Origin: Planctomycetota bacterium
GTDB lineage: Bacteria > Planctomycetota > UBA1135 > UBA2386
Length of the DNA stretch: 64,000 nucleotides
Assembly: GCA_965228735.1 (NCBI GenBank)
Contig: OZ245838.1
Span: 7,072,001-7,136,000 of the forward strand
Direction: 5' to 3'
Shown here: in pieces, positions 5,717-52,101 of the stretch
Layout of the letters: each line of letters starts with the position of its first letter
Position numbering within the stretch: the first letter of the stretch is position 1
Position numbers and translations under genes: made by a program
The notes under the pieces: generated by a model
Database searches by the model: none
What the model was told of the DNA's origin: nothing
Seen by the model: only the letters and a program-made list of their open reading frames with translations

Positions 5717-6178
5717 ATGCCGCGCCGCCGCCAGAGCATCGCCTACACGATCCGCGACCTGCTGCCGATCGTCGTGCTCGGATCGCCGATCGTCTTCCTG
5801 CTCGCCGATCCCTGGAAGTCTTGAATCGAGCAGGAGGTGTGCGGCCCCCGGGTGGCGGCCGACGTGCAGCGCCTGGCCTTCGCGGCGGACGAGTTCTACG
5901 GCATTCACGACCGTTGGCCGAGTCACGCGGAGCTGCTCGCGATCGATGACTCGATGCCGGAGCGGGACGTCTGGGGACACGAATACACGTTCGAGTTCGA
6001 CGCCGAGGGCCACCTACAGGTCCGCAGTCCCGGCGTCGACGAACGGCGCCACACGGCGGACGACATCGTCTCGTGGGTGATGCGGGGCGGGCAGCGCTTC
6101 GAGGAACGCCAGGTCGTCCAGCAGCTGTTGGAGGAACGGGCGGCGCGGGAGCGGGCCGGCGAACGACCGCGTCGCTGA
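5717..6178 (+). CDS. GspG-like (type II secretion pseudopilin C-terminal) protein interrupted by in-frame TGA at 5822-5824; recoded gene or pseudogene
   Basis: MPRRRQ...LLPIVVLGSPIVFLLADPWKS-TGA-IEQEVCGPR...DVWGHEY...VRSPGVDERRHTADDI; the last part matches the GspG DPWG..Y...S.G.D...T.DDI pattern and both halves are in the same frame. Confidence 0.6.
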
Positions 6179-28269: not shown

Positions 28270-29076
28270 CTACTTGCCGTTCTTCTTGCCTGCTTCCGCG
28301 CGCTTGTTCTTCAGGTAGGCGCGCCAGTACTTGCGGTACTTCTGCGGCACCTTCGGCGTGCTGCCGCGGTGCTTCAGTGAGTTGAGGTAGGGCTGCAGCT
28401 CACCCCAGGTCTCCGCGCCCTCACCCGGGCGGCCCGGGCCGGTGGCGTTCTCGGGCGGGTTGGTGCCGCGACGGTTCGCGCCGCGCGCGTCGCGTTCGTT
28501 GCCGTCCGCGGGTTGGCTCGCCTGCTGCTCGTCACCCTGTTCGGTCGGATCGCCCGTCGGCTGGCGGAGATCCTGCTTCGCGAACTCGGGCGTGCTGGAC
28601 TCGCGGCGGTTCTGCGGCGAGCGCTGCGACGCCGCGCCAGTCGCCTTCGAACCCGGCTCGTTCTCGCCGCGACCGCTCTGGTCTCGGCCATTCTGACGTT
28701 GCGACGAGTTGTTCTGGCCGGACCGGCCAGAGCCACCGCCGCTTCAATTGCCGCACTGGTCCTTCAGCTCGTGCAGCTTCTCGATGAGGCGGTCGATGCC
28801 ATCGGCAGCGGCCTTGCTGCCGTCCATCGAACGCGCGAGCTTGTCCTTCGACGTCGTGCGGCCGCTCTGTGACGCGCTCGACTCGAGGAGCATGCGGTCG
28901 ACGTCTTCGAGCTGCTCGGTGACCTCACGCGCGATCTCCTGGATCTGCCGCATGGTGTCGGACGTGGTCGGAGCGGTGCTTGCGTCTTGCGCGGTGAGCC
29001 GGGCTGGGCAGAACAGCAGCGTGGCGAACGCCAAAGCGATCGGTGCCGCGAATCGTCTCGGGTCAGGGCCGGTCAT
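28270..29076 (-). CDS. Putative exported selenoprotein of unknown family with CxxU (CGNU; UGA at 28744-28746, codon 111)
   Basis: AAGGAG RBS, signal peptide and helical region ending LHELKDQCGN-TGA; then 157 more sense codons in frame (SGGGSGRSGQ...WGELQPYLNSLK...VPQKYRKYWRAYLK...GK-TAG) with no usable internal start; strong hairpin 12 nt after the UGA. Confidence 0.72.
28713..28731 (-). promoter_or_regulatory. Candidate bacterial SECIS hairpin after UGA 28744
   Basis: Perfect inverted repeat UCUGGCCGG-U-CCGGCCAGA giving a G-initiated (G)GUC(C) loop about 20 nt after the UGA. Confidence 0.65.
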
Positions 29077-48585: not shown

Positions 48586-49278
48586 TCACCGAGCGACGCA
48601 GTCGGCGAAGGTGGGTTCGCCGGGCAGTTCTGCGCATGCATACTCGAGGTGCACGATGCGGCGTTGCGTGTTCGTCTCGCATCGTGACGATGCGTGCAGG
48701 AGTAGTGGGCGCATCAAGAGTGCGCCGCCGGCCGGCACCGCGCTGGTCGCGGGAGTCGACGTCGCAATCGTGCTATTGATCTGGGAGCGGGACAGAACAC
48801 CGTGCCGATGGCTGCCCGGGATCACGCGCAGGGCGCCGCTCCGACTATCGGAGCCGTCGAGGTCGATGCGCACGGCGAGCACGCCCGCGAGTGCGGCGGT
48901 GGGAGGCTGCACGAACCAGGTCTCGCCCTTGCGCGACCAGGGGCCGTAGCCCGGCGCGTCGACCCGATCGCGTACGGGCACGACGAGATCCTGGTGCCAT
49001 CCGACGAGCCAGTTGGTGCGGGTGGACTTGGCGAACAGGGTGGCCCGATACGCGAAAGCCCGATCGCCGAGCGCGGATTCGGCGAGGTCGAGGACGGCCG
49101 GGTGCCGCGCGAGTCTCCGGATCCCGTCGATCCGAAGTGCGTCGCGCCGCCCCGGCCGTGGGCCGAGCCCCTCGACGAACACGTTCAGGAGGTCGGGCAG
49201 GGCTCCGGCTGGCAGCACGTTCGGGGCGATGCAGAACCCGTCGCGTTCGATGTCTGACTGCGGCTGCAAGTAGGACAC
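48586..49278 (-). CDS. Phytanoyl-CoA dioxygenase (PhyH) family Fe/2OG oxygenase
   Basis: ERDGF, WHQD, GALRVIPGSH, LLHAS...RRIVHLEY. Confidence 0.88.
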   Translation of the reverse strand: MSYLQPQSDIERDGFCIAPNVLPAGALPDLLNVFVEGLGPRPGRRDALRIDGIRRLARHPAVLDLAESALGDRAFAYRATLFAKSTRTNWLVGWHQDLVVPVRDRVDAPGYGPWSRKGETWFVQPPTAALAGVLAVRIDLDGSDSRSGALRVIPGSHRHGVLSRSQINSTIATSTPATSAVPAGGALLMRPLLLHASSRCETNTQRRIVHLEYACAELPGEPTFADCVAR

Positions 49279-49325: not shown

Positions 49326-49757
49326 ATGCGTCATCGGCTCGGTCTCTTGGTCCTGCTGTTCGCGGTCGGGGGTGGATGTTCGGTGAACGACGGCGCGGCT
49401 TCGGGAGGGGCCGGGGCGCGTGGCGCGCGGCCGAGCCATCCCGAGGACATCTCGCTCGCAGAGGCGGATGCGTTGCTGGCGGGCGATGACGACGTGGTCG
49501 TGCTCGACATCCGCACCCCGCAGGAGTTCGCGTCGGGGCACATCCCCGGGGCAGTCATGCTCGACTGCAAGGCGGACGGCTTCGTCGAACAGCTCGGCAA
49601 GCTCGACCGCAGCAAGACCTACGTCGTGCATTGAGGCTCGGGCGGACGGAGCGGCCGTGCGCTGCCCACGCTTCGCGAACTCGGATTCGAAAACATCAAG
49701 CACCTGCCCGCGGGGATGAAGGGCTGGGAGAGCTCGGGGCGACCCGTCGCGAAGTAG
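49326..49757 (+). CDS. Putative selenocysteine-containing rhodanese-like lipoprotein (UGA at 49632-49634 in the active-site position)
   Basis: VLDIRTPQEFASGHIPGA...TYVVH-TGA-GSGGRSGRALPTLRELGFENIKHLPAGMKGW...TAG; the TGA sits at the catalytic Cys of the C.SG.RS loop and the domain is completed in frame after it. Confidence 0.88.
49640..49667 (+). promoter_or_regulatory. Candidate bacterial SECIS hairpin after UGA 49632
   Basis: GGGCGG-ACGG(AGCGG)CCGU-GCG-CUGCCC; loop starts 16 nt after the UGA. Confidence 0.55.
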
Positions 49758-49786
49758 CCGCCGCGAAGTAGCAACCGAGGATTCCC

Positions 49787-51337
49787 TCAGCCACGTAGGA
49801 AGGCGGCGTACTCCCGTTCGATCTTCTTCCAGGTGGCGTCGTCGCTACCGATCACCCTCTCGAGTGTCTGCGCGTGCACTTGGTCTAGGAACGCGGCCCG
49901 GTCGTCGGCGGCGGGGAGCTCCGCCGCGAACTTGGCCAGCGCCGAGAGGTAGCGCGGCAGGAAGTTCTCGAGCGCCGGGGTCCGGGTCTTGCTCAGCAGG
50001 AAGCTTACCGCGAGCTGACATTGGACGTCCCAGCGCTCCTTTCTGCGATGGAGGCGATTCGCCCAGGCAGTGAACTCCTGCCCGTCCAGCGTGAAAATCT
50101 GGCGCAGTGGCGTGAGCTTGCGCTGTCTTACGATCTCGCGGCCGTGATCGCGCGCGAAGTCGCTGCCATCGAACGTCACGTCCTGTTCGATTCGCGCGGC
50201 GTAATACAGCGTACGATGAAGGCCGTGCCGGAGCCAACTCGGCAGCGCGTGCCCGACGAGCGCGTTCTTGTCGTGCAGGTAGCCGTAGAACAGTGTCTCG
50301 CACGCCCTCCCGTAGACGATCGGATCGACTATTCCAGTATCGGTGATGACCGCTTCACCGAACCCGCTGGTGGGCGCGTGCCAATTGCAGAACGCCCGGC
50401 CCTGGTCGATCGCCCGGCAGATCCGCAGTGAGCTGCGGCGGACGTGCTCGTCGCTCAGGTCTCCCAGGAGGTCGTCGAGGTAGTCGAGGAACACTTCGAG
50501 GTCCGCGACGAACGGGTCGGGAGACGAACCACGTTGGCTGATGACGACGAGTCGTTTGGTGCGGTCGTATTCCCACGCGGGTCCCGTCTGCTTCTTGAGC
50601 GCCTTGGCCCATGCGGTCTCGAACCGCTTGCGCAGGGACTTCCGCTTCGAAGCCGGCAGCGCGAGCCAGGCAGCGAAGTGCTCCGGTTGGAGCTTCGCGC
50701 CCAGCCAGCGGTCGTCGGGGCTCGGGCGCCGTGGTCGCTGCGCGATCTGCCTGGTCTTCTCGACGACGTTCTGCCACAGCGACTCGAGTGCGGCCCGCTG
50801 GACCGTCTGTGCCGTGAGCTCGACAGCGATCGAATGGGCCTCGCGCTCGAACACACGGGCGCGGCGCGTGTAGCCGTCCCCGGGCTGTTCGATGACCCGG
50901 TAGTCGCGATACTCGCCGATCGGACTGTCCCCGGTTGCGGTCTCCTCGACGCGAAACTCCTTGCCGTTCGGCACTATGTCGGGCGTCGTCGCCTCGACGA
51001 ACTTCTCGTAGGTCGCGTGACCCGATCCTTCGGTGCTCAGGGAATACGGGTCGAGCGGGTCCGGGCTCGCGATTTCGCGGACCCGGTCGACATCGGCGGG
51101 GAGTACGATCACCCGAGCGAACGTGTGACCAAACCGTGGATCGGGTCCGTCGTCGACGAACGAGGCGGCGATCCACGGGGTGTCTTCGCGGCGGGGAACC
51201 TGCGTCCACGCTCCCGGAATCGTGATCGCGATGCCGAGCGTCGGGGCCTGCCAATCGAGCTTCTCGCGACGGCGCTGTGCACTCGCGTCCGTGACGAGAA
51301 GCCCGACGATCAGAGGCAAGACTGCGAGGTAGTTCAT
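49787..51337 (-). CDS. Secreted hypothetical protein with a degenerate gluzincin-like C-terminal domain
   Basis: Signal peptide; ACETLFYGYLH...LPSWLRHGL resembles HE..H...P.WL.EG with the metal ligands lost. Confidence 0.65.
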   Translation of the reverse strand: MNYLAVLPLIVGLLVTDASAQRRREKLDWQAPTLGIAITIPGAWTQVPRREDTPWIAASFVDDGPDPRFGHTFARVIVLPADVDRVREIASPDPLDPYSLSTEGSGHATYEKFVEATTPDIVPNGKEFRVEETATGDSPIGEYRDYRVIEQPGDGYTRRARVFEREAHSIAVELTAQTVQRAALESLWQNVVEKTRQIAQRPRRPSPDDRWLGAKLQPEHFAAWLALPASKRKSLRKRFETAWAKALKKQTGPAWEYDRTKRLVVISQRGSSPDPFVADLEVFLDYLDDLLGDLSDEHVRRSSLRICRAIDQGRAFCNWHAPTSGFGEAVITDTGIVDPIVYGRACETLFYGYLHDKNALVGHALPSWLRHGLHRTLYYAARIEQDVTFDGSDFARDHGREIVRQRKLTPLRQIFTLDGQEFTAWANRLHRRKERWDVQCQLAVSFLLSKTRTPALENFLPRYLSALAKFAAELPAADDRAAFLDQVHAQTLERVIGSDDATWKKIEREYAAFLRG

Positions 51338-51453
51338 GGGGATCCTGTTGTGCCGAGTGCGATTCGGTTGGCCCGATGTCGTTCGCCGATTCCAGCCGCA
51401 GAGTAATGGAGCGCGTCGATTCGTGCATGCCGCACTCGTTGAGGCCGGCGGGC

Positions 51454-52101
51454 TCATCGCCGTTCGAGGCGCAGCAGAACGTTGTTCTTCGGCATTCGAC
51501 GCACGGTCGGGGGCGTGAGTCCGGCGCGAGTCGCGATGGCCGTCAATTCCGTGAGCGTGCGGACCCCGTACGCGGAATCCCGTTCTCGCAGCTCGCGATC
51601 AAACTCCACGTTGCCATCAGGGCGCGGCTCGCCGTCCAGAAAGACCGCCCCGTAGACGAGCAGCACGCCGCCGCGAACGAGATGGGCCGCGGCGCCGTGA
51701 AACAACGCTTCGGTCGTCGCGATCGGCGCGATGTGCATCACGTTGCTCGCGAACACGGCGTCGAGCGATGCCGGTTCGCACGGCCAGGGTTCGCCGAGCG
51801 TCAGCGGCTTCGGTGGGCGAAGGTTGTCGAGTGCCGCGTGCTCCACCCACGCTCGAATCGACGCGAGCGCTTCCGGATCGCGCTCCGTTGGCTGCCACGT
51901 CCAGCCGGGCAGTCGCGTTGCAGCGAGCACCGCGTGCTCGCCCGTTCCGGCTGCGATCTCGAGACAACGACCCCGTTCCGGAAGTTCGTCGAGCAGGGCG
52001 GCGACGATGTCGCCGCGGTTGCGACCGGCCGACGGCGAGTAGCGGCGACCGTCCGGCTCCCCGTCGAGGGGCTCCATGCGAACGGGTGGGGTGTTGCTCA
52101 T
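51454..52101 (-). CDS. DUF938 family SAM-dependent methyltransferase-like protein
   Basis: SAGRNRGDI, LEIAAGTGEH, WQPTE, NVMHI, YGA, NVEFD..LR...YGVR, MPKNN. Confidence 0.88.
   Translation of the reverse strand: MSNTPPVRMEPLDGEPDGRRYSPSAGRNRGDIVAALLDELPERGRCLEIAAGTGEHAVLAATRLPGWTWQPTERDPEALASIRAWVEHAALDNLRPPKPLTLGEPWPCEPASLDAVFASNVMHIAPIATTEALFHGAAAHLVRGGVLLVYGAVFLDGEPRPDGNVEFDRELRERDSAYGVRTLTELTAIATRAGLTPPTVRRMPKNNVLLRLERR

Follow-up and report, generated by a model that had tools for sequence, protein, structure and literature searches.

The rhodanese gene and its in-frame TGA codon

The window, i.e., the whole 64,000-nucleotide stretch of DNA that was analysed, contains a rhodanese gene at positions 49326-49757 of the forward strand, delimited by frame reading and a Pfam match; all features of this gene described below lie on the same strand. 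The frame opens with an ATG at 49326 and closes with a TAG at 49755-49757, thereby encoding 143 residues, and it contains an in-frame TGA at codon 103 (49632-49634). An earlier note on this DNA had drawn attention to the context YVVH-TGA-GSGGRS and to the 40 codons that complete the domain, and both are borne out, as exactly 40 codons separate the TGA from the TAG. On the basis of the TGA/TGC alternation among orthologs, the codon is read as a putative selenocysteine (Sec103) at the catalytic position. In the databases, the product of the gene is truncated, ending at YVVH and lacking the active site.

The gene is intact, and its annotated stop is an annotation error rather than a sequencing error, because the contigs of several runs agree at the TGA. 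Contigs of three runs are identical across all 701 bases compared, and a fourth run covers the gene to position 49756 with no difference; any of these runs may itself be the source of this DNA. In a diverged strain, represented by two other runs (one of which is labelled as a macroalgae metagenome), none of the 12 listed differences falls inside 49611-49670. Reads showing TGC or TGT, which the earlier note regarded as fatal to a Sec assignment, find no counterpart in the contigs of the four runs, all of which keep TGA, or in the diverged strain, which is unchanged around the codon. A related strain carries a 15-base in-frame insertion in the tether (see below). A short direct repeat extends past the end of the gene (49740-49771), such that an 11-mer around the stop codon is present twice, and the related strain diverges in sequence right at this repeat.

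Rhodanese domain and active-site loop

When the TGA is treated as U, as the earlier note had suggested, the rhodanese profile PF00581 matches across the TGA at residues 45-136 (49458-49733), with an E-value of 3.6e-19 and 69.5 bits against a cut-off of 22.2. The domain, also recognised from the model and its structural match, contains the conserved D61-x-R63 and H72, and in alignments the TGA column falls on the catalytic Cys of rhodaneses with known structures, such as RhdA. An AlphaFold model based on a 47-sequence alignment has a mean pLDDT of 86.6, with a disordered N-terminal part (53-58 over residues 1-30) and a confident domain (93-98 over residues 41-143). The best structural matches of the model are rhodaneses and sulfurtransferases (3tp9, Z 18.6), and the comparison with GlpE (1gmx) gave a Z of 16.3 and an rmsd of 2.1 over 105 residues. 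The rhodanese fold claimed previously is thus upheld by the profile, the model and the structural matches, and the modelled catalytic residue opens the short loop of the alpha/beta rhodanese fold.

The predicted active-site loop, U-G-S-G-G-R-S (49632-49652), is of the UxxGxR, sulfurtransferase type according to the alignments, and its G106, R108 and S109 are invariant among the 47 homologs. Judged by its motif, the loop has the CxxGxR form of single-domain sulfurtransferases; CRSG/AxR is given as the general sulfurtransferase loop motif in the consulted part of PMC10925157. It is very improbable that the protein is a phosphatase or arsenate reductase of the Cdc25/Acr2 type: the rhodanese fold is common to both kinds of enzyme and there is a weak match to a dual-specificity phosphatase structure (E 5.6e-4), but the four residues between Sec and Arg (UxxxxR) represent sulfurtransferase spacing, and rhodaneses and sulfurtransferases head the structural matches. 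Phosphatases on the rhodanese fold have a Cx5R loop. Rhodanese loops are poor predictors of the physiological substrate.

Selenocysteine machinery and conservation of the TGA codon

The host genome (7.19 Mb, one contig) codes for SelA, SelB and SelD, all above curated cut-offs, and selD itself has an in-frame TGA. The tRNA-Sec (Rfam RF01852, 76.6 bits against a gathering threshold of 47) is the only UCA-anticodon tRNA of the 67 listed. The earlier note had held that a genome without Sec machinery would make the gene a pseudogene; SelA, SelB, SelD and tRNA-Sec are all present. The best named relatives of SelA belong mostly to the Planctomycetota. TGA terminates 2458 of 3629 high-scoring ORFs and is therefore the main stop codon of the genome, so that there is no general reassignment of the code; the anticodon of tRNA-Trp is CCA.

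Orthologs were collected from 91 genomes of the planctomycete family at E <= 1e-19; 21 of these have a close ortholog (41-60% identical) and 70 have no match. The catalytic column contains TGA in 16 of the orthologs and TGC in the remaining five, which is the alternation that the earlier note had proposed to look for. The 16 TGA orthologs represent four genera and are not independent, since 12 of them come from one genus. SelA genes were found in 84 of the 91 genomes, including all five TGC genomes and 15 of the 16 TGA genomes, the one TGA genome without a match being 81% complete. Among the best 80 metagenome loci, 10 have TGA and 70 have Cys. Cys is also present in each of the 16 matches at order or phylum level, and 71 named-genome loci comprise 64 Cys forms and no TGA. 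No Sec form appeared outside the family, either in the single match from 193 other genomes of the class or in the 15 matches from a 400-genome sample of the phylum, these searches (and the 71 named-genome loci) being samples limited by the seed. In 15 Sec orthologs, 14 residues past the active-site column are invariant, and the third codon positions vary.

The SECIS-like hairpin

A conserved SECIS-like apical hairpin, recognised from pairing among the orthologs, is found at 49651-49665. It has a five-pair stem and the loop CGUGC at +22 to +26, with G at loop position 2. In an RNAalifold analysis of 16 Sec orthologs every cell is paired, amounting to 100% in the 15 distinct Sec orthologs versus 52% in the five Cys orthologs. 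Five of five pairs together with the loop G occur in all 16 family and all 10 metagenome Sec forms, as opposed to none of the 70 metagenome Cys forms; full pairing is seen in two of the 64 named-genome Cys forms. The earlier note had placed the SECIS loop 16 nt downstream of the TGA. The latter hairpin (49646-49658) is the minimum-energy alternative of the free RNA (z -0.5 versus shuffles), and folding and ortholog pairing show that it is not conserved; with only 70% of its cells paired across the orthologs, it was rejected as the SECIS element in favour of the one at +22.

The consulted part of PMC13188914 describes a bSECIS model with a loop G and a spacing of 16-37 nt, which the predicted +22 hairpin fits. 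Only three of the 33 four-fold codons keep an invariant third position; two of the three lie in the 3' stem of the hairpin, and one is kept even across Ala, Leu and Ser. The conservation of the hairpin is partly driven by the protein (S-S-R-A-L); in the alignment of Sec orthologs the stem contains one A-U to G-U change and no compensatory double changes, and stability relative to shuffles is not significant (z -0.5 to +1.3). Because of the A-U to G-U change, the +22 hairpin is a minor fold in the free RNA of this genome (pair probability 0.00-0.13); it becomes dominant (0.73-0.95) when the ribosome is assumed to cover the first 12-13 nt after the UGA. Loops of a similar kind were seen after 25 of the 30 TGA candidates picked by hand from this genome, compared with 705 of 14897 Cys codons (4.7%), a contrast that is partly circular, as the loop pattern was set after seeing those genes.

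Taken from the sequence comparisons, the TGA at the catalytic codon is almost certainly decoded as Sec. The conserved TGA, the conservation downstream, the hairpin and the Sec machinery all agree with the catalytic Sec of the earlier note, which also called this gene the clearest evidence that UGA is recoded in the organism. The latter claim holds within the window but not genome-wide, where SelD and 24 genes have a profile spanning the TGA. That the TGA is a true stop (a pseudogene, a truncated product or an assembly error), or that it denotes Trp, Gly or Cys under another code, is extremely improbable and effectively refuted already. The truncated product does stand in the databases and the hairpin is no more stable than shuffles, but the TGA is kept in 16 genomes with conserved protein downstream, and the agreement of the contigs argues against an assembly error. 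Recoding to another amino acid is contradicted by TGA as the main stop, by the CCA anticodon of tRNA-Trp and by tRNA-Sec as the sole UCA tRNA.

Predicted lipoprotein signal and export

The N-terminus consists of M-R-H-R and a hydrophobic stretch (Kyte-Doolittle 9-mer values up to 3.1), followed by GGG-C18. On the basis of the sequence and its orthologs, it is predicted to form a lipoprotein signal peptide (residues 1-17) with the lipidation residue Cys18 at 49377-49379 (49326-49379 in total). The lipobox of this protein, GGG-C, is degenerate and non-canonical; the lipidation Cys is invariant in all 15 full-length Sec orthologs, nine of which have L/V-A/S/G-A/G-C boxes. The genome also encodes Lgt and LspA. 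The protein is thus very probably a lipoprotein, and the signal ending in GGGC that was noted earlier stands, albeit with a degenerate box. The signal is followed by a Gly/Ala-rich, putatively flexible tether (residues 19-39, 49380-49442), defined by low pLDDT and by the alignment, in which its length varies among orthologs.

The exported location was previously considered the unusual part of the gene, but this view does not hold: PspE is periplasmic (consulted parts of PMC10215317 and PMC2593051), most of the close Cys homologs have signal peptides or lipoboxes as judged by eye, and about half of the selenoproteins of the genome appear to be exported. Inspection by eye assigns signal peptides to about 20 of the 39 candidate selenoprotein genes (see below), and three of these, besides the present one, code for predicted lipoproteins. 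ExtH is a rhodanese-like lipoprotein, according to the title of a cited reference, and periplasmic or exported selenoproteins are reported in the consulted portions of the publications on MccSep (PMC13510729) and SaoB (bioRxiv 10.1101/2022.07.06.499078).

Origin of the Sec form and gene context

In trees with the active-site column masked, the Sec forms group together among Cys forms of the same family, and two to three changes are needed. Monophyly of the Sec forms requires three changes (p-AU 0.138), and a second, quick tree gives two, from about 100 columns; a single origin of Sec is therefore compatible with the trees and not rejected. This nesting of the Sec clade within its family's Cys forms indicates an independent change from Cys to Sec. 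As part of the best explanation, which we consider probable as a whole, a widespread family of exported Cys proteins gave rise to the Sec form through one or a few Cys-to-Sec changes inside the planctomycete family.

The gene stands alone, flanked by a divergent PhyH-family gene (48586-49278) and a convergent gene of unknown function (49787-51457), and no sigma-70-like promoter was found for it. No RNA dataset was listed as containing the sequence, which carries no information about expression. None of the 12 ortholog loci shares conserved neighbours with this locus, sharing being confined mainly to one genus, and therefore the context names neither a substrate nor a partner. In the largest genus, the gene adjoins asnS at about 10 kb from nusA-infB-rbfA, and selA-selD lie 10-12 kb away in two genomes; a link to selA based on its proximity in three genomes was rejected as a synteny block. 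The genome contains four other rhodanese genes, all with Cys, of which two are metallo-beta-lactamase fusions and two are short proteins without an evident signal peptide. By eye, no sulfide:quinone oxidoreductase was recognised beside the two fusions, and no selenouridine synthase was found over the cut-off in the genome.

Comparison with known rhodaneses

Sec rhodaneses have been predicted since 2005 (bSECISearch; consulted part of PMC1088965), and a 2026 catalogue lists five rhodanese selenoprotein forms, two of which have UxxG (PMC13188914, Table 1). The statement of the earlier note that such proteins had been described is therefore correct, as they are catalogued as forms 1-5. Like forms 2 and 4, all of which are predicted, the present protein has PF00581, one catalytic-site Sec within UxxG (here U-G-S-G) and a downstream bSECIS, a likeness of motif and domain. 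It differs in that its Sec clade is embedded in the Cys forms of the family to which it belongs. The words lipoprotein, signal peptide, periplasm and Planctomycet have no occurrences in PMC13188914. Likewise, the main texts of deep-Sep and BSepDB contain no occurrence of rhodanese or Planctomycet, and the online BSepDB may hold the family. A literature search for GSU0930 as a precedent of an exported Sec rhodanese found no paper.

PspE, GlpE and Wolinella Sud (1qxn) resemble the present protein in their single domain, CxxGxR-type loop and fold. In contrast to these proteins, it has Sec for Cys, an extra Cys81 and, in place of a signal that is cleaved off, a predicted lipid anchor with a tether. 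Its scores against the NCBIfam equivalog models of PspE (23.1 versus a cut-off of 102), GlpE (35.7 versus 102) and a further model (21.9 versus 126.3) are all below the cut-offs. NF041203 rhodanese_LYCAU (form 3), NF045694 TsoB (form 5) and NF040901 ExtH share the rhodanese fold and are either selenoproteins or exported lipoproteins, but they differ in Sec motif, size and gene context, and the scores are far under the cut-offs (35.7 versus 115, 19.9 versus 805 and 21 versus 200, respectively). Verrucomicrobia, Chloroflexi, Bacteroidota and other groups have exported Cys rhodaneses (DIRTPxEF...H/YCxSGxRS) that are 40-60% identical and of the same architecture, with a signal peptide or lipobox; they differ in having a Cys codon, no conserved hairpin and Phe/Tyr at position 81.

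The gene is a mis-annotated selenoprotein gene. It reflects a change from Cys to Sec, limited to this lineage, within a rhodanese family that is common and exported, Sec rhodaneses being already catalogued. Its reading corrects a systematic annotation error, in which the product ended at the TGA and the active site was lost. One new detail is Cys81, which occurs in place of a conserved aromatic residue and is a possible resolving partner of Sec.

Proposed function

The features of the sequence suggest a Sec-decoded, lipid-anchored single-domain rhodanese, which probably moves sulfane sulfur outside the cytoplasm in a manner similar to PspE. In the proposed scheme, SelB-tRNA-Sec would bind the +22 hairpin as soon as the bases directly following the UGA lie under the ribosome, leading to the insertion of Sec103. 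The precursor would be exported, lipidated at Cys18 by Lgt, cleaved by LspA and held in the periplasm on its flexible tether. There, the selenolate in the Arg108-capped loop may take the outer sulfur of thiosulfate or polysulfide, giving an enzyme Se-S intermediate, and the sulfur might then pass to a thiol acceptor, plausibly an exported thioredoxin-fold selenoprotein or a small thiol. Both the substrate and all catalytic steps are inferred. Selenium would be the more reactive nucleophile and would resist irreversible over-oxidation in an oxidising compartment. PspE provides the precedent for periplasmic thiosulfate-to-persulfide transfer; the consulted parts of PMC10215317 and PMC2593051 describe a ping-pong mechanism in which the sulfur of thiosulfate is passed on to glutathione or cyanide. 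In the portion of the literature covered, no assay of a natural Sec rhodanese was found.

An improbable alternative is a periplasmic selenium carrier or metalloid scavenger, comparable to ExtH/ExtI, that would bind a soft metal or selenium derived from selenite and help to meet the large selenium demand of the cell. The need for selenium is indeed large in this genome (at least 26 selenoprotein genes), ExtH, a rhodanese-like lipoprotein, has been linked to the uptake of selenite by Geobacter in the sources as far as consulted, and 10-12 kb separate the Sec form from selA-selD in two genomes that belong to one genus. The proximity, however, reflects the synteny block, with nusA-infB-rbfA and asnS between, and in the present genome the two loci are about 7 Mb apart on the linear contig. 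The score against the ExtH model is only 21 versus a cut-off of 200, 70 of the 91 family genomes have no match at E 1e-19 although 84 have selA, and a Sec residue would be a poor design for scavenging when selenium is limiting.

Cys81 and a possible redox role

Cys81 (49566-49568), identified from the alignment as a candidate resolving cysteine, is replaced by Phe/Tyr in the Cys-form homologs. Among 22 distinct Sec forms, position 81 is occupied by Cys in 15, Tyr in four and Ser in three, compared to Phe/Tyr in 69 and Cys in one of 82 distinct Cys forms. By counting in the alignment, Cys81 corresponds to Trp195 of RhdA, which we take to line the active-site pocket. Five Trp residues surround the RhdA site according to the consulted part of PMC3458005, and within the literature covered no usable passage was found on the pocket role of RhdA Trp195 or bovine Phe212.

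These observations allow a different, and in our opinion doubtful, reading of the selenoprotein as a two-residue redox enzyme, in which Sec103 would attack a persulfide, polysulfide or peroxide and Cys81 would resolve the product to an intramolecular Se-S bond. Sulfide or water would be released, and a periplasmic thioredoxin-fold partner fed by DsbD/CcdA would re-reduce the enzyme. The distribution of Cys81 (15 of 22 Sec forms versus one of 82 Cys forms, and on two separate Sec branches) would be consistent with this role, as would its alignment to a residue taken to line the pocket, and the genome has one DsbD/CcdA-type protein as well as many exported thioredoxin and peroxiredoxin selenoproteins. 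On the other hand, seven of the 22 Sec forms have Tyr or Ser instead, and therefore Sec does not need Cys81. Moreover, the Sec forms are close kin, and the tree requires two changes for Sec and four for Cys81, including one on a branch that has Cys forms only, so that the counts are not independent.

In its fullest version, which we consider unlikely, the aromatic pocket wall was exchanged for Cys81 after the gain of Sec, producing a selenenyl-sulfide-cycling persulfide or peroxide reductase. This enzyme would belong to a redox network of some 26-39 selenoproteins, most of it exported, in a planctomycete family that respires oxygen. If true, such a network would be at odds with the published opinion that selenoproteins are seldom maintained in aerobes. 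The natural Sec, Sec+Cys81 and Cys versions of this small selenoprotein with a soluble domain, all within one family, form a handy set for testing the role of selenium in a sulfurtransferase.

The selenoproteome of the host

The genome was scanned de novo for read-through TGAs using a heuristic approach, in which candidates were picked by eye and some were probably missed; 41 stretches from 39 genes were then scanned with HMMs. Of the 39 genes, 24 have an HMM spanning the TGA (one below the cut-off), 13 lack a spanning model and two were rejected, each being two adjacent genes. The spanning models comprise peroxiredoxins, thioredoxin-like proteins, MsrA, AhpD, SelW, SelL, deiodinase-like, HMA and ArsC-like proteins, among others. 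Together with SelD and the rhodanese gene, 26 selenoprotein genes are supported and up to 39 are possible. For comparison, the top ten genomes of BSepDB have 46-63 selenoprotein genes, and a planctomycete survey gives six putative selenoproteins in one genome (consulted part of PMC4807772).

The genome also codes for two full heme-copper oxidase subunit I proteins and one DsbD/CcdA-type protein. The host is thus likely a selenoprotein-rich, oxygen-respiring planctomycete with about half of its selenoproteins exported; selenoproteins are seldom kept by aerobic bacteria, as stated in the consulted part of PMC13188914. This large, half-exported selenoproteome in an oxidase-bearing planctomycete is the larger point, and it is likely of more interest than the rhodanese gene.

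Two further TGA candidates lie within the window. The first (28744-28746) occurs in an exported 268-codon protein on the reverse strand (28270-29076), in a C-G-N-TGA (CxxU) motif at the start of a low-complexity linker, with a SECIS-like hairpin. The protein has no Pfam or NCBIfam match. Its TGA and motif are kept in a same-genus ortholog, and 23 other homologs have neither Cys nor TGA there; as judged from these sequences, the CxxU motif has possibly newly arisen. The second, at 5822 on the forward strand (contig 7077822), has coding-like flanks and no hairpin and is probably not Sec.

Elsewhere on the contig, a gene resembling cobalamin-independent methionine synthase (1762143, forward strand) has PF01717 spanning its TGA and a good SECIS-like hairpin. 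In four FG-GAP-repeat genes (406817, 5458926, 5872224 and 3065085), an in-frame TGA adjoins a Cys codon, the order being U-C in three of them and C-U in the other; they also have SECIS-like hairpins, and the loop AGUUC recurs in three of these. Neither "methionine synthase" nor "FG-GAP" occurs in PMC13188914 or deep-Sep. Three paralogous exported proteins (3484699, 6929513 and 4855623) share G-H-P-L-G-x-T-U-x-N-G, have SECIS-like hairpins and match no Pfam or NCBIfam family; together with three more candidates without a family, they possibly represent uncatalogued thioredoxin-like selenoprotein families. Finally, three genes apparently have two Sec codons each: an exported HMA-like tandem, an HMA tandem and a VPGUxxT thioredoxin/MsrA-like fusion (NF041383).
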